Position numbers and translations under genes: made by a program. Below are positions 1 through 61,928 of a DNA stretch of 64,000 bases, piece after piece (the stretch's first letter is position 1; every line of letters begins with the position of its first letter). This DNA comes from Escherichia phage vB-EcoP-XT18, in sequence record OR757434.1, one strand, 5' to 3'. Under the pieces are notes generated by a model. That model made no database searches. It was not told the DNA's origin and saw only the letters and a list, made by a program, of their open reading frames with translations.

Positions 1-885
1 GTGTTGCGGCTTCTGTTGAACATTAAGATTCCATATCCGTGGAAGACTCTGAATGAGATGACCTTCGGTATTCGATGGGGGGAGGTGGTAGCAATCGGTG
101 GTGGTGTAGGTAGTGGTAAAACACTAATTGCTCACGAACTGGTTGCTCATCTGTGCTTAGAGCATGGTTTTAATGGGGGTGGCTTCTTCTTGGAAGAGAA
201 GGTAGGCATGTCTGTTAAGAACATCGCTGGTAAGTCAGCATCAATTCCTTTCCACCGACCTGATGTTGAATATGACGAGGAAGATTTGCGTAATGAAGCA
301 CTTCGTTATGCAGACAAATTCTTCTTGTATGACAACTTTGGGCAGAACGAATGGGAAGACATTAAACAGTGTATCCGTTTCTGGGTAGTTGAAAACCAGT
401 GTAAGTTCATCATTCTTGATAACATTACCGCTCTGGTATCTCATTTAACACCTTCAGAGATTAACACTGAAATCAGTAAGATTGCTTCCGAGCTTGCTGG
501 TATGTGTAAAGAATTAGACTTTACCGCTTTCGTGCTATCTCACCTTAATGCTCCGGCAGGTGGTGCTCCTCACGAAGAAGGTGGACAGGTACGTGAAGTA
601 CAGTTCACTGGCTCTCGTTCTCTTATGCGTTGGTGTCAGTGTATCATTGGCTTTGAGCGTGATAAGCAAGCTGACGGCTTAGCTAAGAACCTCTCAGTCA
701 TTCGATTATTGAAAGAACGTAACTACGGTCAGACTGGTGTCTGTTATACTAAGTATATCAGTGAAACCGGTAGACTTGTAGAAAGGGAAGACTTTGAAGT
801 TGATGAAGATAATCCATTCGTTTTAACTAACGGAGAGGATGCAGCTTCTCTCGTCAACCAAGCAGATGGAGCTTCACCGTGGTAA
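1..885 (+). CDS. DNA primase/helicase, C-terminal DnaB-like helicase domain (5' end lies outside the window)
   Basis: Walker [10 protein letters not shown]; ORF open from base 1; layout like the helicase half of T7 gp4. Confidence 0.8.
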
Positions 886-1433
886 AGAAAAAGAAAGTGT
901 TTGCATTTGATATCGAAAGTAATGCACTATACGATGACATAACTAAAGTATGGTGTATTTACATTTTCGATGTTGAAACTGGTGAAAGGTGGGGCTATCG
1001 GCCTCACCAAATTGAAGATGGGATTCGTAAACTTACAGAAGCTGATGTGCTCGTTGGTCATAACATTATTGACTTTGACTTACCTGCTCTGAAAAAGATG
1101 TATCCCTCTTTGATTAAATATAATTTTAACGTCTTTGACACTTTATGTCTTAGTCGATATCTTAAACCTGACCGTATTGGTGACAGTCCTGAGTACCCGA
1201 AAGGTGACCCTAGACATGGCCCAAGAGGTCATGGCTTGAAGCAATGGGGTGAGTTCTTAGAGGAACTTAAAGGTGATTACGGTGAGCAAGAGGAAGCATG
1301 GGATGCTTTCACTGAAGATATGTTTACTTATTGTGAGCAGGACGTTAACTTAACCGTTAAGGTTTATAAATACTTGTGTGAACTCACAGGATTTGATCCT
1401 TACGACCCACCTTCATTATATTGGAAAATGTAA
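879..1433 (+). CDS. Family-A DNA polymerase, 3'-5' exonuclease domain only (part 1 of a split polymerase)
   Basis: [19 protein letters not shown] and YCEQDV resemble Exo I/II/III motifs and the T7 gp5 N-terminus; ORF stops at the exo/pol boundary. Confidence 0.8.
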
Positions 1434-1434
1434 A

Positions 1435-2796
1435 ATGATTGTTATCCCGATTAACCAAATTGAAGATAAGGTTGCTCAACAACCCGATATCACTGTTGGT
1501 CGTCATTTCATTGAACAGTTGATTAACAACAACTTGGTTCCAGACGGTATCTGTCCCATCATTACTGGTGGGGCTGTTCGTGATGCTGTTATTAATAATA
1601 CAGCTCCGCACGACATTGATATCTTTATCGTCAGAGGGCAAACACCAAGAACACAAAACACTTTCACTTCAGTGGGCCGTTGGCAAGCTCTTGGGAGTGA
1701 ACTTGAAAGCAATGTGAAAGAGTGGCTTGAGTCACAAGATATTGAGTATTCATCTCTTCTTGCTGAAGCTACAGATGAGCCATACGCAGGGACTTCTCGA
1801 TTAACATTCACTGATATCATTGAATTTCAGTGGCATGGAACGCGAATCCAATTCATGTTTAACTATCCCACCTCTATCGAAGAGGTTCTAGATAATTTTC
1901 CTATGATGTGTCGTGGTGCTATGACTCTTGATAAGCTATTCATGACCATTCATGGATATTTGGCTATGACTTCTCCAATTCCAGTGGTTGTGACTGATCG
2001 AGAGATTAAATATGTCCACAAGAAGTGGCCTAATTCACAGGTGCTAAGGTTCCAAACCCCGGGAGTTGCTTTTCATTATATGGCACATGCTCGGCAACAA
2101 CCCATACCTCAGATGGTCAGGGATCTGGTTAATAACCAAGGTCAAGTATATCTTATTGGCGACACAGCAAGTCCTCAATATTGTGTTGACCAAGACATGA
2201 GTCGATTCTTTGGAATCCCTTATGAAGAAATTCAGTTAATGTCAAGTGTTAATGGATCTAGTCGGATTAGTGCGTATTGGTCTGAAGGGTTGACAAACCT
2301 GACAACTAACACAGGAGGAGATCTCCTTGGTCGGGAAGAAGAACCTAACCGACACAATGCAATTGAAGGGGTTTTTGTAGCCCCTGCAATGCGCCGAGCA
2401 CAAGAGTCACGAAATCTAAGCTCTACTCGTAGAACATCTTTTGAAGAAACTCTTGGTGTTACTAGCGATTCATTTGAGCGGTGGTTGTCTAGACGTTCTA
2501 ATGGTCAATCAAATGGTTTGACTGTTAGCCGTCACCAGTTCTCTGGTCAGAGTTTAGCTGTTGGTGATAGCAACGCACCTGTTATGGCTGTGTGGACCGA
2601 TGAAGGTGTGGCCCAAGATGTGGTAAGTAGTCTTGATGTCCCTTCTCATGGTGAATTAGCTGAGACCGTCAGCCGCAATCTCGCTGATCGGTTTGTTGCT
2701 AACAACCCTGAAGTATTAGAGCCTCAAACCCGTACAGTTCGGTTTGCCGATGAAGCAGGTCGTGGAATCTCTTTTGACATGGAAACAAACAACTAA
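1435..2796 (+). CDS. Pol-beta superfamily nucleotidyltransferase, CCA-adding enzyme / poly(A) polymerase-like head domain
   Basis: GGAVRD followed by HDIDIF matches the class II tRNA nucleotidyltransferase signature; C-terminal half is S/T/R-rich and looks disordered; start ATG overlaps the exo-domain stop. Confidence 0.55.
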   Translation: MIVIPINQIEDKVAQQPDITVGRHFIEQLINNNLVPDGICPIITGGAVRDAVINNTAPHDIDIFIVRGQTPRTQNTFTSVGRWQALGSELESNVKEWLESQDIEYSSLLAEATDEPYAGTSRLTFTDIIEFQWHGTRIQFMFNYPTSIEEVLDNFPMMCRGAMTLDKLFMTIHGYLAMTSPIPVVVTDREIKYVHKKWPNSQVLRFQTPGVAFHYMAHARQQPIPQMVRDLVNNQGQVYLIGDTASPQYCVDQDMSRFFGIPYEEIQLMSSVNGSSRISAYWSEGLTNLTTNTGGDLLGREEEPNRHNAIEGVFVAPAMRRAQESRNLSSTRRTSFEETLGVTSDSFERWLSRRSNGQSNGLTVSRHQFSGQSLAVGDSNAPVMAVWTDEGVAQDVVSSLDVPSHGELAETVSRNLADRFVANNPEVLEPQTRTVRFADEAGRGISFDMETNN

Positions 2797-2805
2797 GGAA
2801 TAAGA

Positions 2806-3339
2806 ATGAGTTTACTAGGAAGTGTTGAACTGCATGATGTAATTGACAATGGCTATCTGGATGCGGAGCATAAGTATGTTAACGCTGCTAGTGTGGATAT
2901 CCGTATTGGTGATACTATCCTTGTTGAAGAACAGGCTGATGGCATCGTTGATATTGATGCGAAAGAGAATCTTCAGTGGAAGGAAGTAAAAATCCCTGAA
3001 GAGGGCTTGGTTATCACTCCGGGTCAGTTCTTCTTGGCTCACTCTATGGAGGAGTTTAATCTTCCAGATAACATCTCAAGTCTGTTTGTTCTGCGTTCGT
3101 CTATGGCTCGTTGTGGTTTGAACCACCTTCACGCCGGTTGGGCAGATGCAGGATTTAATAGCAGTAAGCTGACATTTGAATTCCATAACGTAACCAAGCA
3201 CCACAGTTTACGAGTTCGTGCTGGTATGCGTGTTGGTCAGATGGTGATGTTTGAGCACTCTCATGCAGGGGAACATTCCTATGCAGTGAAGGGGCGTTAT
3301 AATAACTCTGAAGGTGTAGTTGCATCTAAAGGTGTGTAA
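2806..3339 (+). CDS. dcd: dCTP deaminase
   Basis: ASVDIRIGDT, RSSMARCGL and YNNSEGVVASKG align by eye with E. coli Dcd motifs. Confidence 0.8.
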   Translation: MSLLGSVELHDVIDNGYLDAEHKYVNAASVDIRIGDTILVEEQADGIVDIDAKENLQWKEVKIPEEGLVITPGQFFLAHSMEEFNLPDNISSLFVLRSSMARCGLNHLHAGWADAGFNSSKLTFEFHNVTKHHSLRVRAGMRVGQMVMFEHSHAGEHSYAVKGRYNNSEGVVASKGV

Positions 3340-3546
3340 ATGACTGAAGAAGAGTTCCAAGAACTGAAAGGTTTGACTACCGAGGTTCAATTAAAAGCTA
3401 TGACATTTGGTCGAGCATGTCATCAATTTGATATATGCGTCGAAAGCAGTAAAGAAGCTTGTAAGAGCTATATGGATAAGAAGCACCTTGAATGGGGTAA
3501 AGCCTCTAACGATCTTTATAACTATATGAAGGGTTTAGTAAAATGA
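3340..3546 (+). CDS. hypothetical protein
   Basis: ORF in operon context. Confidence 0.4.
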   Translation: MTEEEFQELKGLTTEVQLKAMTFGRACHQFDICVESSKEACKSYMDKKHLEWGKASNDLYNYMKGLVK

Positions 3547-3740
3547 AAAAGTGGATTGTTCGTGTACATGATGATATGACTGGAGACTTGGTAGCTGTAG
3601 ATTTTATTAACACTCGAGAACACGCCCGTAGGGTCAAAAACCAATACAAGTCTACTTTTAGACTCAATAAGGTTACAATAGGAAAAGCTATTGTGAATAA
3701 CGAAGGTGCTCTTTTTGCCAACAGCAAGGTTTATTATTAA
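3543..3740 (+). CDS. small basic protein, paralog family A member 1
   Basis: shares W..V...TR.EAR..KK...VYY pattern with 3740-3949, 3959-4159 and 6501-6710. Confidence 0.45.
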   Translation: MKKWIVRVHDDMTGDLVAVDFINTREHARRVKNQYKSTFRLNKVTIGKAIVNNEGALFANSKVYY

Positions 3741-3949
3741 TGAGACCAATCACTATGAGACAGTTTTGGTTAGCAAAGATTAAGTGGGCATCAGGTGGTA
3801 TGACTATGACTGCACTTCCTACTCGTCAACAGGCTCGAGATTTTAAAAAGACTATGCTTACTGGTGACGTGGTCAATAGTATCAGTATCCATAAGGCCAA
3901 GGAGTATTCTTCTGGTCGTGTTTATATCAGCGGAAAGGTACATTACTAA
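3740..3949 (+). CDS. small basic protein, paralog family A member 2
   Basis: paralog pattern, ends VHY. Confidence 0.45.
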   Translation: MRPITMRQFWLAKIKWASGGMTMTALPTRQQARDFKKTMLTGDVVNSISIHKAKEYSSGRVYISGKVHY

Positions 3950-3958
3950 TGAAAAAAG

Positions 3959-4159
3959 ATGTGGGCGATTCGTGTTGTTTGGGATCTTGATCAACACACG
4001 AGAAAAGATAGCATCAAATTGTTTGACACTCGCAAAGAGGCTCGTATTGCTAAGAAACAGTTGAAGACTCTGGGCACAATAGTAAAAAGCGCTGATATAC
4101 ATCGCTGGTACGAAGACCCTAACTCGGGTTCTTTTATGTCTAAAGTAATTTATTACTGA
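3959..4159 (+). CDS. small basic protein, paralog family A member 3
   Basis: paralog pattern, ends VIYY. Confidence 0.45.
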   Translation: MWAIRVVWDLDQHTRKDSIKLFDTRKEARIAKKQLKTLGTIVKSADIHRWYEDPNSGSFMSKVIYY

Positions 4160-4183
4160 TTGGTAGTAGATATGGTAACTCTC

Positions 4184-4192
4184 AAATGTATA
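4184..4192 (+). promoter_or_regulatory. AAATGTATA, variant of the recurring TAATGTATA putative phage-sigma promoter motif
   Basis: motif about 40 nt upstream of the 4232 start. Confidence 0.3.
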
Positions 4193-4231
4193 TAGAGTAC
4201 AATAAGAATTTGTATTTTACAGGAGAGAGTT

Positions 4232-4558
4232 ATGTTAGATTTGAGTAAAGTGGCCCCGCCCACTGAAGAGATTACAAAATCCAAGGTGATGCAACAGTTT
4301 TATCATCGTGATATGCTTGGTCGCTTTATCAAGAATCGTGATGTTGTTGCTTGGTCTATTGGTAATCAAGGATATCTGTTGAAGGTTCTTCAGGTTACAG
4401 GTTCAACTGCTAAGCGAGTTAAGGTGTATGACCCTGAAATGGGGCGTTCTAAGTCAGTAGACCCGCAGAACTGCATCGTAATTACCCAGCAGGTGATAGC
4501 AAATCTAGAAAGAAATGTAGCAAACTCTACTGAGTTAGAAGGAGAAGACCCTAAGTGA
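4232..4558 (+). CDS. hypothetical protein
   Basis: ORF with GGAG-type RBS. Confidence 0.45.
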   Translation: MLDLSKVAPPTEEITKSKVMQQFYHRDMLGRFIKNRDVVAWSIGNQGYLLKVLQVTGSTAKRVKVYDPEMGRSKSVDPQNCIVITQQVIANLERNVANSTELEGEDPK

Positions 4559-5049
4559 TTCCAAAGGAATTGGAAGGGAAGATTGATGTAACAGAGGATG
4601 GTAGAGTATTTACTATAAAAAGTGGAAGGTTTTTAACCCTCCACACTAATGGTGCCTATTACAGAGTTACTATTTACTTTCCTGAAGGATTAAAGAATTT
4701 CTATGTCCACAGGCTGGTTGCTAGTAAGTACATACCGAACCCTGATAATCTTCCATGTGTCAACCATAAGGATGGCAATAAACTTAACAATCATAAAGAT
4801 AATCTTGAATGGTGTACCCACCGAGAAAACTCTCAACATGCATCATCATTAGGTCTGATGGTACAGAGGTTTGGAGAAGACAATCCGCAGTCTAAACTTA
4901 CTCTAGAAGATGTAGAGTACTGTAGGAGAGTTTATATCCCTCGAGATAAAGAGTTTGGAGGCTCTGCCCTTGCAAGACGTTTTGGTGTCTCTCAGCAAGT
5001 GATATCAAAAGTTCTACTTAATCAAACTTGGAGGGAATATAATGCATAA
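4555..5049 (+). CDS. HNH homing endonuclease with C-terminal HTH
   Basis: VNHKDGNKLNNHKDNLEWCTHRENSQH; paralog of 41312-41824. Confidence 0.8.
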   Translation: MIPKELEGKIDVTEDGRVFTIKSGRFLTLHTNGAYYRVTIYFPEGLKNFYVHRLVASKYIPNPDNLPCVNHKDGNKLNNHKDNLEWCTHRENSQHASSLGLMVQRFGEDNPQSKLTLEDVEYCRRVYIPRDKEFGGSALARRFGVSQQVISKVLLNQTWREYNA

Positions 5050-5605
5050 GAATGTTTTTGATTTACCTGAGATTGGTCGTGCCGAATATAATATGTTAGA
5101 CCGATCAGAGCTTTCAATCTCTCGCCTTGAAACAATGCAGGGTATGATTAGTGGAAACAGCCTAGAACACATCCTGAGCTGCTTACAAGCTAACATAGAA
5201 CTCTTGCATATCAAAGCTAAAAACTACCATTGGAACGTCTCTGGTGCAGGATTTCAGGGTGTTCATGGTATGTTTGATGAGCTGGAAGATTACGCACGAC
5301 AAGTAGGAGATCGTATTGCTGAACGTATGCGTTACCACTGTGTTAAAGTGGACGCCACAGCAGCCAATTATCTCTCCCATGCTTGGTTCTCAGAGGGTAA
5401 TGCTGACCTAGATATGGACGGTATGCTCTCTGATATGTGCATGACCTTGATGTGTATTATTGAGAAGATGGATGAGTTTGATGGTGATTTAGCCACTTAT
5501 CCAGTTGATCAGAGTATGCTTCAAGAAATTAATGAAGGTCTTGGCAAGTATTGCTACTTCGTCAAGAGCAACATGTCCCACTCAAGTGGCGATGTGTCTT
5601 ACTAA
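5042..5605 (+). CDS. Dps/ferritin-like protein
   Basis: KNYHWNVSGAGFQGVHGMFDELEDYARQVGDRIAER resembles the Dps core HWN..G..F..H..F.E....D.IAER. Confidence 0.6.
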   Translation: MHKNVFDLPEIGRAEYNMLDRSELSISRLETMQGMISGNSLEHILSCLQANIELLHIKAKNYHWNVSGAGFQGVHGMFDELEDYARQVGDRIAERMRYHCVKVDATAANYLSHAWFSEGNADLDMDGMLSDMCMTLMCIIEKMDEFDGDLATYPVDQSMLQEINEGLGKYCYFVKSNMSHSSGDVSY

Positions 5606-5666
5606 AAACCTCCGCCCTGTCTCCTAACCCGAGGTGGGGCGAACTTATTTATAAGGATATAGATAT

Positions 5667-5846
5667 ATGTTATCAGCAATCGTATGGGGTATTTGGGCTG
5701 TCTTTATTGGTGGTGGTATCTATTGGGCTTCTGGCAAGCTTATTGAAGAAACTCCTGACAAGAAAGGTGAGATTCAAACAGCATCAACCATCATGGTTGT
5801 CGTAGCTGTTGTTATCCCATTCCTGCTTCACCTCCTGACTGCATAA
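5667..5846 (+). CDS. small membrane protein (59 aa, below the ORF-track cutoff)
   Basis: ATG with AAGGA RBS; two hydrophobic segments; the overlapping track ORF 5551-5805 is in another frame and less plausible. Confidence 0.4.
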   Translation: MLSAIVWGIWAVFIGGGIYWASGKLIEETPDKKGEIQTASTIMVVVAVVIPFLLHLLTA

Positions 5847-5855
5847 GGGTTTGAT

Positions 5856-6041
5856 ATGATTTCACTGATTGTGTGGGCCGTGTGGTCGTTAATAGTTGGT
5901 ACTGTTATATATAAAGCTCGAAATTTAGCAATTAAAGAAAACCCAGCAGAAGAGGATGTTAAAGCTATCAAGCTAGGCAGTGTTGTTCTGGTACATTTTG
6001 CTATAACACTACCTCTTGTTATTATTCTTTGTATGCTATAA
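5856..6041 (+). CDS. small membrane protein
   Basis: two hydrophobic segments; similar to 5667-5846. Confidence 0.4.
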   Translation: MISLIVWAVWSLIVGTVIYKARNLAIKENPAEEDVKAIKLGSVVLVHFAITLPLVIILCML

Positions 6042-6231
6042 GGAAACCAAAGAGTGAAACTAAACCTACCTGAAGAATTACAAGCACATGCCATTATCGT
6101 TAGTGGCTGTGTGATGGGTCTTGGTCAAACAAAGAAGATTGCTCATGACTTAGCAAAAGGTCAGTATAAATCTTTTATTGTTGTTCCTGCTACCCAACGT
6201 CATATCAACCTGTTTATTAACAAGGAATAGA

Positions 6232-6504
6232 ATGTCTAAAGTGATTAAGTTTTATAGCGATCAGTGTGCTCCATGTAAAGCAATGGCTCCTACCTTTGAG
6301 AAGGTTGTTAAGGAGTTCGATGTAGAAGTAGAAGAGATTAACATCCTTGAAGGTGATGGTCGTGAACAAGCTGTTAAGTATGGTGTAAGAAGCATCCCTG
6401 CTTTCGTTGTACCTGACCGTAATAGTGGTGCACACTATAGTCTCTCTGGTATGCAGACCGAAGCAAACCTGAAAGCATTCTTAACTACTGCCCTAGGTGT
6501 TTGA
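6232..6504 (+). CDS. thioredoxin-like protein
   Basis: CAPC active-site motif in thioredoxin-fold context; ATG at 6232 has an RBS, track start 6178 is probably too far upstream. Confidence 0.65.
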   Translation: MSKVIKFYSDQCAPCKAMAPTFEKVVKEFDVEVEEINILEGDGREQAVKYGVRSIPAFVVPDRNSGAHYSLSGMQTEANLKAFLTTALGV

Positions 6505-6710
6505 TTATGAAAAAATATTGGACGGTGGTATATTACCTCTACCAAGACCCGGCTATACCTGTTACAGAGCACTTTGCTACTCGTAAAGATGCTCGCCGTT
6601 TTAAGAAGGCTCTTAAGATGTCTCCAAAGATTTATAGTAAAGTAAGCTTACATAAATCAACATTGTCAGAGAAGGGAACCTTAGTGGTTTGTTATGTAAA
6701 AGAATATTAA
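6501..6710 (+). CDS. small basic protein, paralog family A member 4
   Basis: TRKDARRFKKAL...VKEY pattern. Confidence 0.45.
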   Translation: MIMKKYWTVVYYLYQDPAIPVTEHFATRKDARRFKKALKMSPKIYSKVSLHKSTLSEKGTLVVCYVKEY

Positions 6711-6725
6711 TAAGGAAATTCACGG

Positions 6726-7217
6726 ATGAATGATATTGATCCATCAATAAAAGAAGCTCTTGATTATGACCCTTTGACTGGAGATTTCCGATGGGTTAAA
6801 ACTTATGGAAAAGGGCGCAAAGGGTCTATAGCTGGTTCTATAAATACCAACGGGTATTTGAGAATCGTTTATAAAGGTGTTAGGTATTATGCTCATCGAC
6901 TTGCTTACTGGTGGGACACTGGATTGCTTCCTGAAGAAGTGGACCATGTAGACCGCAACAGACTAAATAACAAAAGAGAGAACCTTAGAGGGACTACTAG
7001 GTCAGGGAATGGACTCAACAAAATAGCCCAAAGTAACAACTTATCAACCGGAGTGATTGGAGTAACTCTTCATAGAAGGAAAAGTGGCTCTATTGCTTAC
7101 CGGGCGGTATTCAAATCTAAGCACATAGGACTCTTCTCAACTATAGAAGAAGCCTCTAAAGCATATAATAAAGTCAAGGAGACTTATATAAATGACAATC
7201 AAAGCTTCACTAATTGA
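6726..7217 (+). CDS. HNH homing endonuclease
   Basis: VDHVDRNRLNNKRENLR HNH core. Confidence 0.75.
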   Translation: MNDIDPSIKEALDYDPLTGDFRWVKTYGKGRKGSIAGSINTNGYLRIVYKGVRYYAHRLAYWWDTGLLPEEVDHVDRNRLNNKRENLRGTTRSGNGLNKIAQSNNLSTGVIGVTLHRRKSGSIAYRAVFKSKHIGLFSTIEEASKAYNKVKETYINDNQSFTN

Positions 7218-7839
7218 TAACTTCGGTTCCGACCTTACTGTGGTCAATGCTGCTCGTGTGACTATGGGGGTAGAAAGAGAGGAGTTGAAAGAAAGTGATA
7301 CTCGGCTTATTAACTTCCTAGCTCGAGAGCGACACGTAAGCCCTTTTCGCCACCCACAAGCTAGCTTCAGATGCGAAGCCCCTATAGCAATTGCACGTCA
7401 GCTACAGAAGCATCAAGTTGGTTTTTCTTGGAATGAGATGAGTCGTAGATATAAAGATGGAGCAGTGGATATTTTTATACCTAAAGAAATCTTCTCTCGC
7501 CCCGATGATCTACATTCGGGTTCTGGAACACTCCTTGAAGGAGATGAAGAGGTAAAGGCTTTAGCTTTGTTTAACTCTGCATATGAGGCATCTCTTGCTA
7601 GTTATGATGAATTAATTAAGTTCGTAGCTCCTGAACAGGCTAGATTTGTTTTACCTCAAGGTATGGTAACTACTTGGTACTGGACTGGTTCTTTGTATGG
7701 CTGGTTTGAGTTGTGTCGTCAGCGACTATCCTCCCATGCTCAGTATGAAGTTCGAGTGTTTGCTCAATCTCTGGATGAAGAGATGGCTAAACTCTACCCA
7801 ATCTCGTGGGCAGCTCTGAAGAAAACTTTGGAGAGTTAA
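7192..7839 (+). CDS. thyX: FAD-dependent thymidylate synthase (ThyX-like) with variant active-site motif
   Basis: by-eye alignment to ThyX (VNAARVTMG, SHAQYE); canonical RHR-x7-S appears as KHQ-x8-S. Confidence 0.7.
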   Translation: MTIKASLIDNFGSDLTVVNAARVTMGVEREELKESDTRLINFLARERHVSPFRHPQASFRCEAPIAIARQLQKHQVGFSWNEMSRRYKDGAVDIFIPKEIFSRPDDLHSGSGTLLEGDEEVKALALFNSAYEASLASYDELIKFVAPEQARFVLPQGMVTTWYWTGSLYGWFELCRQRLSSHAQYEVRVFAQSLDEEMAKLYPISWAALKKTLES

Positions 7840-8024
7840 TGACACATAAAGTGTGTAGCTTCTGTAAGAAAGAGAAGACTATCATCAACTTCAAACCTAA
7901 TCCTGTAACTGGTCTGTCTCATGTTATGTGTCACTCTTGTAGGATATATCTTGAAACAAAGCACACCATTAACAGGTTGCATTATTATCACCCAACAACA
8001 TTCAAATTTAAGGTTGTTAAATGA
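7839..8024 (+). CDS. small zinc-ribbon protein
   Basis: CSFC...CHSC; ATG overlaps the thyX stop. Confidence 0.4.
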   Translation: MTHKVCSFCKKEKTIINFKPNPVTGLSHVMCHSCRIYLETKHTINRLHYYHPTTFKFKVVK

Positions 8025-8224
8025 AAACATTATGGACTCTTGACTGTCAAGATGATGACGGAGAGCGTTGGACTTGGAAATATTTCCTAGGGAAACCAAC
8101 ACCCGAGAACCCTGCTTTGGATTGTGCTTCATATGAAGATGCTAAGAAGCTGGTAAATGGAGAAAAGGTTTGGTCTCCGGATAATGAAGTTCAGTACTTT
8201 TTAACAGAACGGAAATTTTCATAA
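8021..8224 (+). CDS. hypothetical protein
   Basis: ORF, translationally coupled. Confidence 0.4.
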   Translation: MKTLWTLDCQDDDGERWTWKYFLGKPTPENPALDCASYEDAKKLVNGEKVWSPDNEVQYFLTERKFS

Positions 8225-8547
8225 TGATTGACGGTAATACATTTAGGACTTCAAATGGAAGTGAAATAAGTCCCGCTGAAGTGATTAATCGGCACAGAAG
8301 GCAATTGATCATCCATTCCTATTTGTATTACTGGTTGGATGACCCTATCTGGTCTGATGATAAATGGCAACAAGTTGCTAACGATTTGGTTGAGTTGCAA
8401 GCCTTGTATCCAGAGCCTACCGGAGTCTTTGACAATGAGTTCAAAGATTGGGATGGTTCTACAGGGATGCATCTCCCACATAACGAAGCTGTTGCTTGTA
8501 TGGCGACAGCTGTTTACAGACTTCATAAAGAGGTTAACTTCGCATGA
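8224..8547 (+). CDS. hypothetical protein
   Basis: ORF. Confidence 0.45.
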   Translation: MIDGNTFRTSNGSEISPAEVINRHRRQLIIHSYLYYWLDDPIWSDDKWQQVANDLVELQALYPEPTGVFDNEFKDWDGSTGMHLPHNEAVACMATAVYRLHKEVNFA

Positions 8548-8744
8548 GCGTAGTTTATGTTCTAGAAAGATATGCTGAAGATCACAACAGTATTGTTGCC
8601 ATATTTAAATATGCCCCAGATGTTGAGGATATTTTGAATGTGACTCACTTAACTAATGTTGATAAAATCAAAGACCTCATCAGGAATGACAATGCCCACA
8701 TAGGTGACTCTCTGTGGTCTCTTACCGAATGGACATTGTGGTGA
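8544..8744 (+). CDS. hypothetical protein
   Basis: ORF. Confidence 0.4.
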   Translation: MSVVYVLERYAEDHNSIVAIFKYAPDVEDILNVTHLTNVDKIKDLIRNDNAHIGDSLWSLTEWTLW

Positions 8745-8926
8745 AGTGCTCTAGGTGTGAAGGAACAAACCTTCATTTAAGTAACAAGGTTATCAGAGAG
8801 CTTGCCAAAGGCTCTCCAACCAAAGGGAAGAACAAACGATTTACTAACGTCAGGGTTTATACAGCAATCTGTAAAGACTGCTTAACTACTGAGTGTCATT
8901 ACGAAGAAATTGGAGAGCGTAAATGA
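8714..8926 (+). CDS. small Cys-rich protein
   Basis: CSRC...CKDC...ECH. Confidence 0.35.
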   Translation: MVSYRMDIVVKCSRCEGTNLHLSNKVIRELAKGSPTKGKNKRFTNVRVYTAICKDCLTTECHYEEIGERK

Positions 8927-9660
8927 GTCGTCGTCAATCACGGAAAGAATCACGGAAAGACCTTCGTCGGGAAGCACTTGTCACTCGTAAGGGTAAGCGC
9001 GAGTTTGAAGAGGTGGTTTTAGCAAAGCCTGTAGTCCCTCAGAACCAGTTCCAGTCTGAACTGCTCAATGCTATCAAGACTAAACAAGTTGTGTTCACAG
9101 ACGCTCCTGCGGGCTGCGGGAAGACCTTTGTAATCACTTCCACAGTTATTGATGCACTGAAGAGTGGTAAGATTCAGAAGATCATTCTGAGTCGCCCTTC
9201 TGTTGGCATGGGTAACTCACTTGGGTTGCTTCCGGGAGGAATGCGTGAGAAATTTGAACCATATCTGATGCCAATCATTGATGTTATTACTCAGAGATAT
9301 GGTAAGGGGTTCTATGAATGCCAGCTCGGTAATAGTAACATTGAGTTTGTACCTCTGGAGTATCTCCGTGGTCGTTCTTTCAATGATGCTATCGTTATCG
9401 TTGATGAGTTCCAGAACACCACTAAAGATGAAGCCTTCTCAATCATGACTCGATTGGGAGAAACCTCTCAGCTGTTCTGCATGGGTGATACAAACCAGCA
9501 TGATATGCGTGGTCGTGAGAGTGGTCTTACTTGGGCTACTAACTTTATTGATGAACATGATCTGTATGAGTTCGCTGAGATTGTAGACGGCGAATCAGAT
9601 GACATTGTTCGTTCTGGTTTCTGTAAAGCTATTGTTAAAGCAATGGAAAAGAAAGCTTAA
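8923..9660 (+). CDS. phoH: PhoH-like ATPase
   Basis: Walker A APAGCGKT, Walker B IVIVDEFQN. Confidence 0.8.
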   Translation: MSRRQSRKESRKDLRREALVTRKGKREFEEVVLAKPVVPQNQFQSELLNAIKTKQVVFTDAPAGCGKTFVITSTVIDALKSGKIQKIILSRPSVGMGNSLGLLPGGMREKFEPYLMPIIDVITQRYGKGFYECQLGNSNIEFVPLEYLRGRSFNDAIVIVDEFQNTTKDEAFSIMTRLGETSQLFCMGDTNQHDMRGRESGLTWATNFIDEHDLYEFAEIVDGESDDIVRSGFCKAIVKAMEKKA

Positions 9661-9671
9661 ACAGTAACTTA

Positions 9672-9680
9672 TAATGTATA
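9672..9680 (+). promoter_or_regulatory. TAATGTATA, putative phage-sigma-dependent promoter
   Basis: motif about 35 nt upstream of the 9717 ATG; same 9-mer recurs upstream of other genes on both strands. Confidence 0.45.
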
Positions 9681-9716
9681 CTCCTTAGTGTACACTGATA
9701 TATTAAGGAGTTTTAA

Positions 9717-10040
9717 ATGGCAGACCATGTAGGAAAGAGAGATTATGCACAAGAAAGACGTACCGCCATCGCAAGGGGTGAAACGGGAATTGGTAGCAAG
9801 AGCGGAGATGCTCAGCGCCACCGTGCACGTCGCATCGTTGAAAAGCGCGATGGAAAAGCTGCTGTCAGAGGTAAAGACGTTGGACACAAGCGAGCCATCA
9901 AGTCAGGAGGCTCTAATGCGTCAAGCAACTTACGTGTTGAAACAGTCAGCGGAAATCGTTCAGCTGGCGGCAAAAGTGGAGATCGAGCTGGGAAGGCAGC
10001 TGGCGCTGCTAAGCGAAAAGGAGCTTTAAGCTCCTCGTAA
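9717..10040 (+). CDS. basic Gly/Lys/Arg-rich protein, possibly nucleic-acid binding
   Basis: AAGGAG RBS 6 nt before the ATG; an alternative frame 9745-10029 is also open. Confidence 0.45.
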   Translation: MADHVGKRDYAQERRTAIARGETGIGSKSGDAQRHRARRIVEKRDGKAAVRGKDVGHKRAIKSGGSNASSNLRVETVSGNRSAGGKSGDRAGKAAGAAKRKGALSSS

Positions 10041-10044
10041 TATG

Positions 10045-10075
10045 AGGCTACCCAAATGGGTGGCCTTTTCTTTTA
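10045..10075 (+). terminator. rho-independent terminator
   Basis: 9-bp stem AGGCUACCC/GGGUGGCCU with one G-U, then UUUCUUUUAU. Confidence 0.6.
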
Positions 10076-10108
10076 TATAAACCGAATTAAACTTCTTAGG
10101 TAATAACT

Positions 10109-10357
10109 ATGTCTATTGTAAAAACTGTAACTATTATTGATGTAATGACTGTCCGTCTGGTTAAGTGGAAATTCACCAACAATCATGGCATTGCTAATCT
10201 CATTGCAAACCAGATTGGTCATAACCCAAAAACAGCTCGTACTAACGTAATCCTCCGTGGTGCTGATGGGAAGTTCATTTCTTATAAGAATAAAGATGTA
10301 GAGAAAGAATTCCGTGTTGCAGTAGAAAACCTCATCCCATTCCCTAAAGGAGTTTAA
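10109..10357 (+). CDS. hypothetical protein, tandem paralog 1
   Basis: shares KTART.V.LR...GKFISY....PFPKG with 10359-10634. Confidence 0.5.
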   Translation: MSIVKTVTIIDVMTVRLVKWKFTNNHGIANLIANQIGHNPKTARTNVILRGADGKFISYKNKDVEKEFRVAVENLIPFPKGV

Positions 10358-10358
10358 T

Positions 10359-10634
10359 ATGAATAAATTAGCTATGGTTCAGATTCGAGACATATACCCT
10401 AACCATCCGGAGAAAACTTGGTCTTATCTGTTGACTGAAAGCAAGACTATTGACACATATCTTGCAGGGGTTGACACTATCCCAACCAGTATCACATTGC
10501 TCCCTCACAAAACAGCCAGAACCCATGTGATGTTACGTGACAGCAAAGGTAAGTTTATCTCTTATCGAGATGCTCGAATCAATAGCGAAATTAAATCTGC
10601 TATGGAATCTTTAACGCCATTCCCAAAAGGTTGA
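10359..10634 (+). CDS. hypothetical protein, tandem paralog 2
   Basis: paralog of 10109-10357. Confidence 0.5.
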   Translation: MNKLAMVQIRDIYPNHPEKTWSYLLTESKTIDTYLAGVDTIPTSITLLPHKTARTHVMLRDSKGKFISYRDARINSEIKSAMESLTPFPKG

Positions 10635-10797
10635 GTGATGAAAGAATACATTTACGTAGGAAAGCGCTGGGTCGGTGATGAATGGGAAGGTGGATACAGC
10701 GTTGTGAAAGCTTTTAAGTCTGAAGAAGATGCTAAGGCGTGGGTCTTAAAAGATGACGTTGGTGAGAGAACTTACATTGAAGTAGAGGTGGAGTAGA

Positions 10798-11214
10798 ATG
10801 CCATTACCAGCTAGACATCAAAACAGATTCCTAGTTCTCAAGTGGGATGATATCGAAATGAATCTCACTGAACACGAACTTGATTTGTTCCATGAACTGT
10901 TGTCAGAGATTCGCTCTGGTATCCCTGATCGTCAGTATGTAGTTATCAGTGATAAGCACCCTCAAGAGTTTGAAGAAGTTTGGGGTATGAAGTTAGCTTA
11001 TATCCAGAGAGCTATTCGAGAAAGAGAAGAAGTCGCTAACCAAAGGGTTGTGGCCCATTTAGTACGAGAGCAACCTCGTGAAGCTGGGGCTAACCATGCA
11101 CCACCTCCTCCTCGTACAGTTATCAATGGGATGGTTAGGGCTTATAGTGACGAAGCTACCATGTTAGATGTGGTAGAAGATAACCAAGCATTTACAGATT
11201 TACTTTACCAATAA
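10798..11214 (+). CDS. hypothetical protein
   Basis: ORF immediately upstream of the polymerase-domain gene. Confidence 0.45.
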   Translation: MPLPARHQNRFLVLKWDDIEMNLTEHELDLFHELLSEIRSGIPDRQYVVISDKHPQEFEEVWGMKLAYIQRAIREREEVANQRVVAHLVREQPREAGANHAPPPPRTVINGMVRAYSDEATMLDVVEDNQAFTDLLYQ

Positions 11215-11230
11215 TTTAAAGGAGTATAAA

Positions 11231-13075
11231 GTGAGCAACCCGGACGCTCTCCCATTTTTGACAGAGATGACTGTCGCTGATATAATCTCTAAGCAAGCGA
11301 AGCACGGAGTGAGTTTCAACCGAAGAAATGCTCGGTGGTATGTTCACCTCCTTAAAGAGATTATTGTTAATATTGACAAAGAACTGATTCCTCTCTTACC
11401 TAAGATGCGATTAGATGGCTCTACTTACATGAAACCATTTAAGAAGTCTGGAGCTTTACAGAAATGGCCTCAAGCCTATTGTGATAGAGTTGGACTTAAG
11501 AGAGAAGACATTGGTGGAGCATTCACCTGTGTTGAATACGTAGACTTTGACCCATCGAAAGATGCACGAGTTAAAGAAGCCCTTATGGATGAGGGTTTTC
11601 TTCCTCCAGAGTTTAACGTATCAAAGAAACCTTGGAATACTTTTGAAATCAAGAAAGATATGCGAAAGTATGGAACATACCAAGCATGGTATTCAGCTTG
11701 GATGCGAGGTAATGCTAAACAGAAGCAGACAGCCGAGATGGTTGACGCTGATATTAGGAAGTTCTTAGAAAAGCATTTTAGGTTTAAGACTAAGAACTAT
11801 ATGAAGGCTTATGTATTTGGTTTAGGTTTAAATCCTAACCGACGTAGACCTATCACTTTTGACGAGATTAAGATAGCACTAGCTACCTCAAACAAGTGGC
11901 CTACAGCTCCTACAAACCTCGAGGAGACTCTTGAAGAAGGGTTAGGGGGTGAGTTAGGAAGTGTCGGAAGTTTGCTTAAGAGACGCGTTGTAGCGGCTCA
12001 CAGGCTAGGTCTTATCAGTGGACTAATAGCAAAGGAACGCGAAGATGGTAAACTTTCGGCAGAAGCTAACAGCTGCGCTACGCCGACTTTTCGATTCAAA
12101 CATCGTATCGTGGTTAATATTCCCTCCCGTGGTTTGTTTGGTCATGAGTGTCGCAGTTTGTTTGAGTCTGACTATAACTCAGATGATGATCACTCTCGTC
12201 CTTTCGTTATTACTAACGTTGTTCCTGATGGTTGTTATATACGAAAAGGTACTAACGTAATTTACGAGAAAGGTAAGCCGGGGAAGAAAGATAAGCCTGT
12301 AGGTGCTTACAAATATTACATACCCGCTGGTAAAGAAGTATTCTTAGGGTATGATGGTTCTGGGTTAGAGTTGCGTATGCTGGTACATTATCTAGTAAAA
12401 GAGTGCCTTGATATGATGGAGGAGGCTAAACTAGAAAATGACAAAGTTAAATATCTAAGAGCTGAGAAAGGCTTAGAAGCTGCCTATACATACAGAGATG
12501 TACTGCTGTCTGGTGATATTCATTCCCACAATCAGAAACTCGCTGGGCTTCCAACTCGTGACAATGCAAAAACCTTCATCTATGGATTCCTGTATGGAGC
12601 AGGAGCAGCTAAAATTGGGGAAATAGTTGGAGGGGGTGCTCAAGAAGGTGAAATTCTTAGAGAGCGATTCTTAGCGGAATGTCCTTGTATTCCTATCGTA
12701 CTGGAGAGAGTTCAGGCCCGAGCGGAATCAGGCACTTTGGAAGGTGTGGATGGTCGTAAGTTAACTATGAGACGAGATGCTACTGGTAAGGTTATGGTGC
12801 ATAAAGCACTGAATACTCTACTTCAGAGTGCAGGTGCCATTGTCATGAAGTACTCTATTCTGTTTACAAACAAATGGGTAGAGCAGCAGAATATTAGAGG
12901 AAACAAAGTGATCGATTATCATGATGAAGCACAGTGGTCTGTCAACCGTAACGACGTTGATAAAATGAAGAAGATAGCTGAGACTTGTGTTAAGAAGGCA
13001 GGTGAATATCTAAACATGCACTGTGAACTAGCTTCTGATTGTAAAATCGGATTGAATTGGATGCAAACTCACTAA
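11231..13075 (+). CDS. Family-A DNA polymerase, polymerase domain (part 2 of the split polymerase)
   Basis: GYDGSGLELRML, SGDIHSHNQKLAGLPTRDNAKTFIYGFLYGAG and DYHDEAQ correspond to T7 gp5 motifs A, B and C. Confidence 0.85.
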   Translation: MSNPDALPFLTEMTVADIISKQAKHGVSFNRRNARWYVHLLKEIIVNIDKELIPLLPKMRLDGSTYMKPFKKSGALQKWPQAYCDRVGLKREDIGGAFTCVEYVDFDPSKDARVKEALMDEGFLPPEFNVSKKPWNTFEIKKDMRKYGTYQAWYSAWMRGNAKQKQTAEMVDADIRKFLEKHFRFKTKNYMKAYVFGLGLNPNRRRPITFDEIKIALATSNKWPTAPTNLEETLEEGLGGELGSVGSLLKRRVVAAHRLGLISGLIAKEREDGKLSAEANSCATPTFRFKHRIVVNIPSRGLFGHECRSLFESDYNSDDDHSRPFVITNVVPDGCYIRKGTNVIYEKGKPGKKDKPVGAYKYYIPAGKEVFLGYDGSGLELRMLVHYLVKECLDMMEEAKLENDKVKYLRAEKGLEAAYTYRDVLLSGDIHSHNQKLAGLPTRDNAKTFIYGFLYGAGAAKIGEIVGGGAQEGEILRERFLAECPCIPIVLERVQARAESGTLEGVDGRKLTMRRDATGKVMVHKALNTLLQSAGAIVMKYSILFTNKWVEQQNIRGNKVIDYHDEAQWSVNRNDVDKMKKIAETCVKKAGEYLNMHCELASDCKIGLNWMQTH

Positions 13076-13451
13076 ATTCAGAACTGAAAGATTGGAATAC
13101 AAATGAACTAGTCTTATTGATTAGTTCATAACAAGGAGATTGAAGTGGAAGAGATGCAATCGGATTGGTGTTATCGTCAGAGCGCCATCTGTAATGAACA
13201 AGGACGTCCTGATGAAGCTGAGTTTTATTTAGAACTCGCTGAACTATGGAAAGAGAGAGAGGAAAAGAATGACTGCAACTGAATTGAAAGAAACCATGTC
13301 CACTGAAGAAGGTAAAGCTTTCTTCCTAACTCAAGTACACTCTATGGGTAAAGATGCCCTTCGCCAAGCAGTCGTTGAGCTTACTGGTGTAGTGATTGAC
13401 TTGAGTATTGAAAATGAAACACTTGAAGCTAAAGTAAAAAGTTAAATAAGA

Positions 13452-13476
13452 AGCTGCCTTAGGGCGGCTTTTCTTG
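13452..13476 (+). terminator. rho-independent terminator
   Basis: AGCUGCC-UUAG-GGCGGCU then UUUCUUG. Confidence 0.5.
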
Positions 13477-13491
13477 TCTAAAGGATTTGAC

Positions 13492-13884
13492 ATGAATATT
13501 GGTTTAGATTACGATGATACTTACACCTCAGATAAGAAGCTGTGGCGCTCTGTGGTGGCATTAATGCAAGCTAAAGGTTATGATGTACGTTTTGTAACTT
13601 ATCGCTTTGCAGAGCCTAATGGATATGATAATCACGACATTAAGATTGATGCAGAGTGTTTGCAAATTCCTATCATCTTTTGTAATGGTGTGCAGAAGGA
13701 TGAGGTTTGTCGACAGTTAGGTTTCTTTGTAGATATCTGGATTGACGATTTCCCTGTTGGAATCCCCAAAAAGGACCACCTAGATGGTATGCTGAAGGGT
13801 GTAAGACTTAATGACCTTAGGGCAGCACCTCCTGTAGAAATAGCCGCTCCTGTGTACTCTGAAGAGCCTCTGGTGATTCGATGA
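13492..13884 (+). CDS. HAD-like phosphatase or nucleotidase
   Basis: DYDDT fits HAD motif I (DxDxT); IWIDDFP fits the acidic motif; ATG at 13492 has an AAGGA RBS. Confidence 0.45.
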   Translation: MNIGLDYDDTYTSDKKLWRSVVALMQAKGYDVRFVTYRFAEPNGYDNHDIKIDAECLQIPIIFCNGVQKDEVCRQLGFFVDIWIDDFPVGIPKKDHLDGMLKGVRLNDLRAAPPVEIAAPVYSEEPLVIR

Positions 13885-14048
13885 AAAAGTATAGTGTATG
13901 GTTTAACGAGGTAGAAGAAGGTTTTGATGAAGTTGGTGGATGGGTTAATATCCTAAACACTGATGATATAGAAGAGGCCGAGAAGTGCGCCCTAAACTAT
14001 AACTCTGGATATTATGAAAGAAATTGGGAATACGAGGAAGAAGTATGA
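13881..14048 (+). CDS. small acidic hypothetical protein (55 aa)
   Basis: ATG overlaps the upstream stop (ATGA); below the track cutoff. Confidence 0.3.
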   Translation: MKKYSVWFNEVEEGFDEVGGWVNILNTDDIEEAEKCALNYNSGYYERNWEYEEEV

Positions 14049-14266: not shown

Positions 14267-14483
14267 AATGGAATACATTGATAAATACTCAAGTGAAGAT
14301 TCAAAAGACGCTGAAGTTTTGTTCGTACTGAAAACAGACTGTTTAGAACATGGACAGCTTATCAACTTTATTGAATTGGCAAAACTTAAAGAAGAAATTG
14401 ATCAACTATACAGTGATGAGCAATCCAGATTACTTTCCTTGTCCCTGCTAGGTGACTTAACCTGTGATGGTTGCATGATATGA
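14232..14483 (+). CDS. hypothetical protein
   Basis: ORF. Confidence 0.3.
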   Translation: MLLTTNKEMWCKMEYIDKYSSEDSKDAEVLFVLKTDCLEHGQLINFIELAKLKEEIDQLYSDEQSRLLSLSLLGDLTCDGCMI

Positions 14484-14953
14484 TAGAAGATCTTCTGGAT
14501 GAGTTCTTTGTTTGTGATTTATCATCTGGGAAAGTGTTCTGGAGAATTCACAACGGAACAAAATGCAGGCGGGGTGACGAGGCAGGAACTTCAAAAAAGG
14601 ATGGAAGAGTGCTTATTCGATTGAAAGGAAGAGCCATTTACAGATACCACATCATTTGGTATTTTGCTAATGGTGTTTTACCTAAAGATCAAATAGATCA
14701 CATTGATCGAAACCCTTCCAACGATTCCATAGGCAACCTTAGAGAAGTTAACAACGAGAATAATTCTTGGAACAAGGGTTTGAACTCTAACAACACATCA
14801 GGAGCTAAGGGCGTATACCTCAATTCAAGAGGGAAGTACATAGCCAACATACATATTAGAGGTAAAACTAAATACCTAGGAACTTTCTCAACCCTAGAGG
14901 AAGCCGTCTCTGTTAGAAACAGAGCGGAGGAAGATCATAAATTAACTACCTAA
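14471..14953 (+). CDS. HNH homing endonuclease
   Basis: IDHIDRNPSNDSIGNLREV HNH core. Confidence 0.75.
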   Translation: MHDMIEDLLDEFFVCDLSSGKVFWRIHNGTKCRRGDEAGTSKKDGRVLIRLKGRAIYRYHIIWYFANGVLPKDQIDHIDRNPSNDSIGNLREVNNENNSWNKGLNSNNTSGAKGVYLNSRGKYIANIHIRGKTKYLGTFSTLEEAVSVRNRAEEDHKLTT

Positions 14954-15601: not shown

Positions 15602-15867
15602 AAGTTATTGTTTTAAGTTAAGTTTTCTTTTGATTTTAATAGAGAATCAAAGTCCTAGGAGTCCTCAACCTAAATCAAGGATTTCCTCAATTCTCTATTT
15701 TTATCTCGCAGGTGTCTCCTGCCCTTCGGTACTTGCAAGGGTTACGATGATTGCCCAATATACAAGCCTGCAATAGCTTTACTAGCTATACAATATATAC
15801 ATTACTAGTGTGTTATATCTACTACCAAAGATACTTATATTATATAGTACCCTTATCGGTATAAGCG

Positions 15868-15876
15868 TAATGTATA
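15868..15876 (+). promoter_or_regulatory. TAATGTATA, putative phage-sigma-dependent promoter
   Basis: in the 330-bp intergenic region upstream of 15935; an inverted copy lies at 15795-15803. Confidence 0.45.
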
Positions 15877-18730: not shown

Positions 18731-19335
18731 GTAATGAGCCTAAACCTTTAGTAGTAATTCTTAATGGGCCTCCGGGTTGTGGTAAGGATACGATAGCTGA
18801 GGAGTGGTTACTAAAATCCCACATTGCGTCTTATTCTCGTTATATTAAATCATTTAAAGAGCCTATGTACAAAGTCGCCTCCGCAGCATTAGGTTTGAAC
18901 TTGGAGGATTTTCTGGAGTTTTATAAAGATCGAAACTGGAAAGAAAAACCTAGGCCTGAATGGGGAGGTAGGTCTGTCAGAGATTTAATGATTTCCACAA
19001 GTGAAGATTACTTAAAACCTATGTTTGGTAAGAACTACATGGGAACCCAAGCAGTAAATAGTATCAAGTCAGAAGGAAGGAATCACAATGATGTTATCCT
19101 GTTTACTGATGGTGGGTTTGAAGCAGAGGTGAGAGAGCTAGAAAAGTCTTTCAATGTAGTAGTAGTTCAAGTTCACAGGAATGGTTGTGATTTTTCTGGA
19201 GATTCTAGGAATTATATTGAAGGGGAGCAGTTAGAAACTTGTACATTATCCAACAATCGAACTATTTCGGAAGCTCGGTACTACTTGGATTGGATTATAG
19301 CTGAAAATAGAGATAAAGTTTATGGAAGAAGTTAA
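18721..19335 (+). CDS. P-loop kinase, probably deoxynucleoside monophosphate kinase
   Basis: Walker A NGPPGCGKDT; resembles T4 gp1 dNMP kinase by eye. Confidence 0.55.
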
Positions 19336-26260: not shown

Positions 26261-26269
26261 TATACATTA
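26261..26269 (-). promoter_or_regulatory. TAATGTATA, putative phage-sigma-dependent late promoter
   Basis: minus strand reads CTATAATGTATATAG about 35 nt upstream of the 26222 ATG. Confidence 0.45.
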
Positions 26270-41857: not shown

Positions 41858-41866
41858 TATACATTA
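41858..41866 (-). promoter_or_regulatory. TAATGTATA, putative phage-sigma-dependent promoter
   Basis: minus strand reads GTGTAATGTATATTC about 35 nt upstream of the HNH start. Confidence 0.45.
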
Positions 41867-61853: not shown

Positions 61854-61928
61854 GTCCCTATAGTTAAAAGGATATAACAGATTTCTTCTAAAAATCCATT
61901 CTAGGTTCGAGTCCTAGTGGGGACGCCA
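61854..61928 (+). tRNA. tRNA-Arg (anticodon UCU) with encoded CCA
   Basis: hand-folded cloverleaf: 7-bp acceptor stem with one G-U, D arm GTTA/TAAC, anticodon stem GATTT/AAATC with loop CTTCTAA, T arm CTAGG-TTCGAGT-CCTAG, discriminator G. Confidence 0.8.

Follow-up and report, generated by a model that had tools for sequence, protein, structure and literature searches.

Separate genes for the predicted exonuclease and polymerase halves of a T7-type DNA polymerase in Escherichia phage vB-EcoP-XT18 and allied phages

In phages of the phiEco32 group, the exonuclease and polymerase parts of the family-A DNA polymerase have been annotated as separate genes since 2008, when the GenBank record of phiEco32 described phi32_74 as 'type I DNA polymerase; contains 3'-5' exonuclease domain' and phi32_53 as 'DNA polymerase-like protein; lacks 5'-3' and 3'-5' exonuclease domains'. 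It was later stated in the paper on phage tf that the polymerase and the proofreading exonuclease are separate genes in all LUZ24-group phages, and that a similar arrangement had been reported for phiEco32 (2012; PMC3517423). Separate genes have since been stated for all Kuravirus-like phages and likewise for 7-11, Privateer, Vp_R1, and BUCT695 (2023; PMC9965538). In the Privateer record the small protein is called 'DNA polymerase exonuclease subunit', with matches cited to the entries EXO74_BPE32 and DPOL_BPE32, and the records of IMEP8 and XT73 annotate both halves as DNA polymerase. Here we describe this split in a 64,000-nucleotide stretch of Escherichia phage vB-EcoP-XT18 (record OR757434.1; the whole stretch is called the window below), where the original prediction implied a novelty that these records and papers take away.

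Megablast of positions 1-14000 of the window against phage records matched 99 records, nearly all of them Kuravirus phages of E. coli, and the closest was vB-EcoP-XT73 (97.5% identity, 96% query coverage). By these matches the window phage is a Kuravirus, the genus of phiEco32-like coliphages in the subfamily Gordonclarkvirinae, and belongs to a well-sampled group. Its exonuclease and polymerase are orthologues of phi32_74 (96% amino acid identity) and phi32_53 (87%), and phiEco32 (phi32_75, phi32_74, phi32_53) resembles the window in gene order, in the overlap between the primase/helicase and exonuclease genes, and in the split itself. The two differ in the distance between the halves (8.0 kb in phiEco32 vs. 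9.8 kb in the window), in two extra HNH genes of the window, and in several small indels.

Two complementary halves of a T7-type polymerase

The features that carry the argument are the following:

1-885, plus strand: 3' part of a primase/helicase gene (T7 gp4-like), truncated by the window edge (PF03796 DnaB_C, E 6e-11)
879-1433, plus strand: predicted stand-alone 3'-5' proofreading exonuclease subunit, 184 amino acids, corresponding to about residues 1-204 of T7 gp5
1435-11214, plus strand (all open reading frames): block of 27 open reading frames separating the halves, with nucleotide-metabolism genes, accessory genes, and many small frames (open reading frame list, Pfam)
11231-13075, plus strand: predicted polymerase subunit, 614 amino acids, with the thumb, palm, and fingers of a T7 gp5-type family-A polymerase and no exonuclease domain

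The original prediction placed the two halves in open reading frames (ORFs) at 879-1433 and 11231-13075, 9.8 kb apart, and both ORFs were found there. The counterpart of the first gene in the list is annotated 'DNA primase/helicase' in the records of XT73, IMEP8, and phiEco32, and its stop codon is overlapped by the start codon of the exonuclease gene in the sequence GTGGTAA at 879-885. The exonuclease starts with the GTG at 879, with a GGAG at 868-871, 7 nt ahead, and stops with the TAA at 1431-1433, the ATG of the next gene following one base further (ATGTAAAATG).

The exonuclease ORF matches the Pfam family PF01612 DNA_pol_A_exo1 (37.9 bits against a cutoff of 23.6, E 2e-9), and among the PDB sequences it matches T7 gp5 only (residues 3-182, E 1e-11). 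Because the 27 best Foldseek matches of its AlphaFold2 model (predicted local distance difference test, pLDDT, 93.1) in the PDB are all T7 gp5 (E 1e-11 to 2e-9), with the next family at 5e-6, the modelled product is a PolA DEDDy domain of the gp5 type and not a DnaQ-type exonuclease, the alternative that the original prediction had named. All 55 homologues that were found are 105-212 amino acids long and are without a polymerase domain. The six DEDDy residues (Exo I D11/E13, Exo II N62/D67, Exo III Y151/D155) are invariant across the 54 aligned stand-alone homologues, which span 35-98% identity. In the AlphaFold model the protein closes with a helix at residues 146-170 and then a short tail, GFD..PP, the counterpart of the gp5 linker, which is kept in at least 80% of the aligned homologues.

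The polymerase ORF carries the predicted motifs A, B, and C. It matches PF00476 DNA_pol_A (74.5 bits against a cutoff of 34.3, E 1e-20) and no second family; T7 gp5 heads its matches among the PDB sequences (E 9e-37), with Klenow far behind, and the 27 best Foldseek matches of its AlphaFold2 model (pLDDT 91.5) are again all T7 gp5 (best E 8e-26). Motif A reads DGSGLELR, motif B RDNAKTFIYGFLYGAG, with a core identical to that of T7, and motif C HDE, and the residues D375/E380, R443/K447/Y451/Y455, and H564/D565/E566 are invariant in 52 sequences. Neither Pfam nor the alignment with intact polymerases detected an exonuclease domain or exonuclease motifs in this ORF. For both ORFs, the agreement with the Pfam families and with T7 gp5 goes well past what chance would give. 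Its GTG start at 11231 is preceded by an AAGGAG at 11220-11225, 5 nt ahead, and its model begins with a 5-residue coil followed by a helix at residues 6-25.

How the halves meet was seen in an alignment of virtual exonuclease-plus-polymerase concatenates with the intact polymerases of T7 and of the Vibrio phages JSF37 and CHOED. The exonuclease ends at about T7 residue 204, and the polymerase begins at about T7 residue 205 and covers gp5 to residue 704, so that the junction lies in the interdomain linker, between the Exo III helix and the first polymerase helix, with neither overlap nor gap. The exonuclease ORF does stop at the exonuclease/polymerase boundary, as had been proposed, and by alignment the two ORFs are complementary, non-overlapping halves of one T7 gp5-type polymerase, both of them predicted to keep intact active sites. 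Against phiEco32 and IMEP8, the exonuclease has a ratio of nonsynonymous to synonymous substitution rates (dN/dS) of 0.07 and the polymerase one of 0.13-0.18, values that indicate strong purifying selection on both halves, and stronger on the exonuclease than on the polymerase.

Origin of the split and a probable two-subunit replicase

Primase/helicase, exonuclease, inserted genes, and polymerase follow one another in this order in phiEco32, IMEP8, XT73, Privateer, a 7-11-like phage, the LUZ24-like phage PSP30, and a metagenomic contig. In all split lineages that were examined, the exonuclease gene comes shortly after that of the primase/helicase, in most cases as its direct downstream neighbour. 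Comparison with related phages, which had been suggested as a check, thus found split genes in Kuravirus and allied lineages and intact ones in T7, JSF37, and CHOED, where the whole polymerase gene lies downstream of the primase/helicase gene. The exonuclease ends of seven split lineages fall within 13 alignment columns, and the distance between the halves varies as follows:

LUZ24-like PSP30: 1.7 kb
metagenomic contig L013: 3.2 kb
Privateer: 5.6 kb
7-11-like phage PKM.Hi.22.6: 6.0 kb
phiEco32: 8.0 kb
IMEP8: 8.9 kb
window phage: 9.8 kb

The polymerase of the window aligns over its full length with that of LUZ24-like phages (38% identity, E 1e-115), whereas with T7-like polymerases the alignment covers the C-terminal 56% only, and the polymerases of split lineages have insertions in common that intact polymerases do not have. 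When homologues from a set of 5.8 billion proteins were ranked, ranks 1-73 of the best 120 clusters (35-98% identity) were without an exonuclease domain, the first cluster with one being rank 74. In neighbour-joining trees of 20 taxa with 100 bootstraps, the split polymerases formed one bipartition in 100/100 bootstraps; the exonuclease tree, from an alignment of 147 columns, has nearly the same inner topology. One polymerase clade, a common break point, and shared synteny together suggest a single ancient fission, after which both genes were inherited together, and most simply the locus would have begun with a break inside gene 5, after which the gap widened.

Many relatives have a further interruption, near motif B within the polymerase half, which is then encoded as products of about 450 and about 125 amino acids, about 700 nt apart. 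This is seen in Salmonella phage PKM.Hi.22.6 (L007, 22446-24901), KBNP1711, BUCT695, the clusters P0068, P0070-72, and P0105, and others. At Rfam gathering thresholds no group I intron was found in L007, and the interruption may be an undetected intron, as in LUZ24, or a second fission. Two other candidates for a split gene were set aside: 'DNA polymerase, part I' of phage alia is an intact 859-amino-acid gene whose name was transferred, and the annotation of Ralstonia phage 10RS306A was too poor to be used.

We consider it likely that the two genes encode a two-subunit T7-type replicase, normal for phiEco32-like phages, which arose from a split ancestral gene 5. This reading draws on selection, on co-inheritance, and on a gp5-type fold that has kept its linker tail, and the PhiKZ polymerase complex discussed below is a precedent; that both proteins are made, bind each other, and proofread as a complex is what we infer. 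In the ancestor, a T7-type gene 5 that came immediately after the primase/helicase gene would have been broken in the linker between exonuclease and polymerase. The exonuclease half would have stayed beside the primase/helicase gene, its start codon overlapping that gene's stop, while the polymerase half would have gained its own ribosome-binding site and GTG start, and the space between them would have become a site where accessory genes accumulate. At the protein level, the 21-kDa proofreading subunit would bind the 70-kDa polymerase non-covalently, by the interface that was once intramolecular, and would edit the primer end while docked, as intact gp5 does.

Several observations weigh against a two-subunit replicase with this history. 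Firstly, the exonuclease by itself is too short to resolve the tree: the split lineages are monophyletic in its 20-taxon point tree with a support of only 15/100 bootstraps, and a first tree of 9 taxa did not recover the split clade, so the single fission rests mainly on the polymerase tree, the break point, and synteny, with which the exonuclease tree is merely compatible. Secondly, the gene with which the exonuclease is paired by a start/stop overlap is that of the primase/helicase, not that of the polymerase. Thirdly, terminator-like hairpins lie between the halves at 5613 and 10044, together with an exact copy of a phage promoter consensus:

9672-9680, plus strand: exact match to TAATGTATA, the consensus of the phiEco32 gp36 (phage sigma) middle/late promoters, in the intergenic space 3' of the PhoH gene and 1.55 kb upstream of the polymerase gene

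Because this promoter consensus and the two hairpins stand between the genes, expression of the exonuclease and of the polymerase may differ. The consensus was taken from a study in which the polymerase and nucleotide-metabolism genes of phiEco32 fall in the middle expression class (PMC8948821). The window holds five exact matches to TAATGTATA against 0.75 expected by chance, the other four being at 15868-15876 (plus strand) and at 15796-15804, 26261-26269, and 41858-41866 (minus strand), and the five sites probably mark middle and late promoters of the phage sigma factor.

A second promoter-like element stands inside the polymerase gene itself, at 11258-11286 on the plus strand, where codons 10-19 contain a perfect extended -10 sigma-70 consensus (TTGACA-N14-TGnTATAAT). 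It is the sole match at no more than one mismatch in the 64-kb window (0.01 expected) and is identical and at an equal offset in XT73, IMEP8, and phiEco32, the polymerases of IMEP8 and phiEco32 being just 87-88% identical. A transcript from it would be without the polymerase start codon. Its -10 element is made of the codons GAT ATA ATC, ATA being a rare isoleucine codon in E. coli. The element may be an internal promoter, an origin-type promoter, or a by-product of coding constraint.

The strongest competitor, which the original prediction had named beside association in trans, is that the exonuclease is an independent 3'-5' DNase, active for example in host DNA breakdown, recombination, or end processing and not bound to a polymerase that would then be without intrinsic proofreading. 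The 9.8 kb between the genes, the separate promoter consensus with the hairpins, and the pairing with the primase/helicase gene would all fit such an enzyme. Nevertheless, we hold it to be unlikely, in view of the kept gp5-type fold and conserved linker tail, the congruent exonuclease and polymerase trees, the presence of both genes in every split-lineage genome or contig examined, and the purifying selection, which presses harder on the exonuclease than on the polymerase; in our estimation, a proofreading-free replicase would also be unusual for a 75-kb genome.

A more elaborate proposal, which we regard as quite doubtful, makes the proofreading subunit a regulated or exchangeable part of the replisome, co-translated with the primase/helicase and perhaps tethered to it. 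The polymerase would be driven also from the site at 9672, with a conserved sigma-70 promoter in its first 20 codons, and the ratio of exonuclease to polymerase, hence fidelity, could shift during infection. Very unlikely, in our judgement, is the view that the exonuclease owes its place in the replisome chiefly to the primase/helicase and not to the polymerase, so that proofreading would come from a helicase-associated subunit. The two genes do adjoin or lie near each other in every split lineage examined, and they overlap in Kuravirus (GTGGTAA) and in PSP30. Inherited order is nevertheless the simpler account, since gene 5 lies downstream of gene 4 in T7, JSF37, and CHOED too, and in the 7-11-like phage an endonuclease VII gene separates the primase/helicase gene from that of the exonuclease.

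Finally, it is hardly credible that the split is unreal at the protein level, whether as a sequencing or assembly artefact, as a pseudogene, or through rejoining by an intron, a split intein, trans-splicing, or a frameshift. Some authors have called the LUZ24-type gene pair 'exons' (PMC3890496), group I introns lie inside the LUZ24 polymerase half, the polymerase half is interrupted in some relatives, and an open +1 frame at 1378-2796 shares 56 nt with the 3' end of the exonuclease ORF. However, the arrangement recurs in about 100 Kuravirus records and many others, 27 ORFs intervene, both halves carry a Shine-Dalgarno sequence and a start codon of their own, dN/dS is far under 1, and the LUZ24 intron is within the polymerase half, not between the halves. 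The joining intron or intein that the original prediction had asked about was not found: Rfam returned no ribozyme or intron family in positions 1-14000 of the window and no intron family in the 7-11-like locus, and there are no intein blocks at the junction, where all residues align to the gp5 linker and none are spare for intein halves.

The gene block between the halves

Six of the 27 ORFs in the gap have a Pfam domain above the curated cutoff. The genes with Pfam assignments, two mobile HNH genes among them, are listed below together with a putative replication nuclease that is encoded downstream of the polymerase:

2806-3339, plus strand: dCTP deaminase (Pfam)
4555-5049, plus strand: free-standing HNH_3 homing-endonuclease gene (PF13392, E 7e-9)
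5042-5605, plus strand: Dps-like protein of the ferritin fold (Pfam)
6178-6504, plus strand: thioredoxin (Pfam)
6726-7217, plus strand: second HNH_3 gene, in the 5' end of thyX (PF13392, E 1e-10)
7192-7839, plus strand: ThyX (Pfam)
8224-8547, plus strand: ligase Ia-domain protein (PF22745, E 3e-35)
8923-9660, plus strand: PhoH (Pfam)
19322-20140, plus strand: separately encoded putative 5'-3' (FEN-type) exonuclease (sub-threshold matches to 5_3_exonuc_N, E 7e-6, and to 5_3_exonuc; in the position of phi32_33, annotated '5'-3' exonuclease')

About 25 genes had been predicted here, with two HNH endonucleases, a nucleotidyltransferase, Dps, thioredoxin, ThyX, and PhoH among them. The count is slightly higher and all of these products were recovered with Pfam except the nucleotidyltransferase, for which the match is sub-threshold. 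The protein concerned (1435-2796, 453 amino acids) matches the head domain of poly(A) polymerases and CCA-adding enzymes (PolyA_pol) at E 0.006, and its gene is in place in Kuravirus and is not there in Privateer, the 7-11-like phage, or the LUZ24-like phage. A frameshift fusion of the exonuclease with this nucleotidyltransferase through the +1 ORF at 1378-2796 was considered and rejected as unsupported, because relatives annotate the ATG at 1435 and because the nucleotidyltransferase gene is not there in those three lineages.

The gap is an indel mosaic among XT73, IMEP8, phiEco32, and the window. The HNH gene at 4555-5049 is a precise insertion between the homologues of phi32_68 and phi32_67 (Dps); it is absent from phiEco32 and IMEP8, where blastn alignments skip 4555-5040, and is present in XT73. 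The other one, at 6726-7217, is absent from XT73, which has 91 nt in place of the 548 nt at 6734-7281 of the window. Its ORF begins where the annotated thyX ATG of XT73 stands, and the ThyX ORF of the window starts within the inserted DNA, sharing 26 nt with the 3' end of the HNH gene. To judge by these alignments, a free-standing endonuclease gene seems to have homed into thyX and replaced the N-terminus of its target. The thyX-associated gene has a paralogue (33% identity, E 1e-18) in a further HNH_3 gene at 14471-14953, and several further segments of the gap differ among the four phages.

Tandem or nearby pairs of small-protein paralogues lie inside the gap at 10109-10357 and 10359-10634 (56% identity, E 3e-15), at 5667-5846 and 5856-6041 (33%, E 1e-8), and at 3959-4159 and 6501-6710 (36%, E 1e-3), and these pairs suggest local duplication as one way in which the gap may have grown. 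The ligase Ia-domain protein (107 amino acids) has no adenylation or OB domains, one more replication-enzyme domain that stands alone; a homologue is also found within the exonuclease-polymerase gap of contig L013. The predicted product of 19322-20140 is, by its position and matches, a third nuclease/polymerase piece of the replication module and a putative functional counterpart of T7 gene 6. Elsewhere in the window, the sole Rfam match is the tRNA at 61854, a single tRNA-Arg gene (anticodon TCT; 61854-61928, plus strand).

Significance and comparison with known polymerases

As a further isolate with the standard layout of a well-sequenced genus, the window phage matters little by itself. The modest wider value lies in the large clade to which it belongs (Kuravirus-like, Privateer, 7-11-like, LUZ24-like, and many metagenomic phages), which has long replicated with a separate T7-type proofreading protein and offers a natural system for family-A proofreading in trans, as well as for the growth of a gene fission site into a 10-kb landing zone for accessory genes. 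Our analysis adds to the earlier descriptions a common break point, a single polymerase clade with kept gene order, a gap ranging from 1.7 to 9.8 kb, and purifying selection on both genes. The residual interest is in how a split family-A replicase works, for which we found neither biochemical work nor any experimental test in the searchable literature.

Among described systems, the LUZ24-like Pseudomonas phages (LUZ24, PaP3, tf, UFV-P2, PSP30), whose genes are named 'DNA polymerase part I' and 'part II', are like the window in break point, in gene order with an overlapping exonuclease gene, in the clade-specific insertions, and in tree clade. They differ in a gap of about 1.7 kb with 5 small genes and in a polymerase of 545 amino acids that has no insertion after motif A, and LUZ24 also has a group I intron, shown experimentally, inside part II.

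T7 gene 5 resembles both halves in fold, catalytic residues, and motif B, including the position of Tyr526, and like the exonuclease gene of the window it lies downstream of the primase/helicase gene. Unlike the window proteins, T7 gp5 is a single polypeptide, and it is used with host thioredoxin, whereas the window phage has its own thioredoxin gene; thioredoxin binding has been proposed for Privateer (PMC7881722). Where T7 gp5 has its 76-amino-acid thioredoxin-binding loop, the polymerase of the window has one of about 40 amino acids, and relative to gp5 it has insertions of about 90, 40, and 25 amino acids.

In the bacterial Pol III core, the alpha polymerase and the epsilon proofreading subunit are separate polypeptides that act together, a principle that the two-subunit replicase proposed here would share. 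That system differs from the window in having a family-C polymerase and a DnaQ-type exonuclease, and its subunits did not come from the fission of one gene. The polymerase of PhiKZ is like that of the window in being encoded by two genes, although it belongs to family B, is split at another site, and comes from an unrelated phage group; its two parts, DNAP-N and DNAP-C, reassemble into a stable 1:1 complex (PMC13648687).

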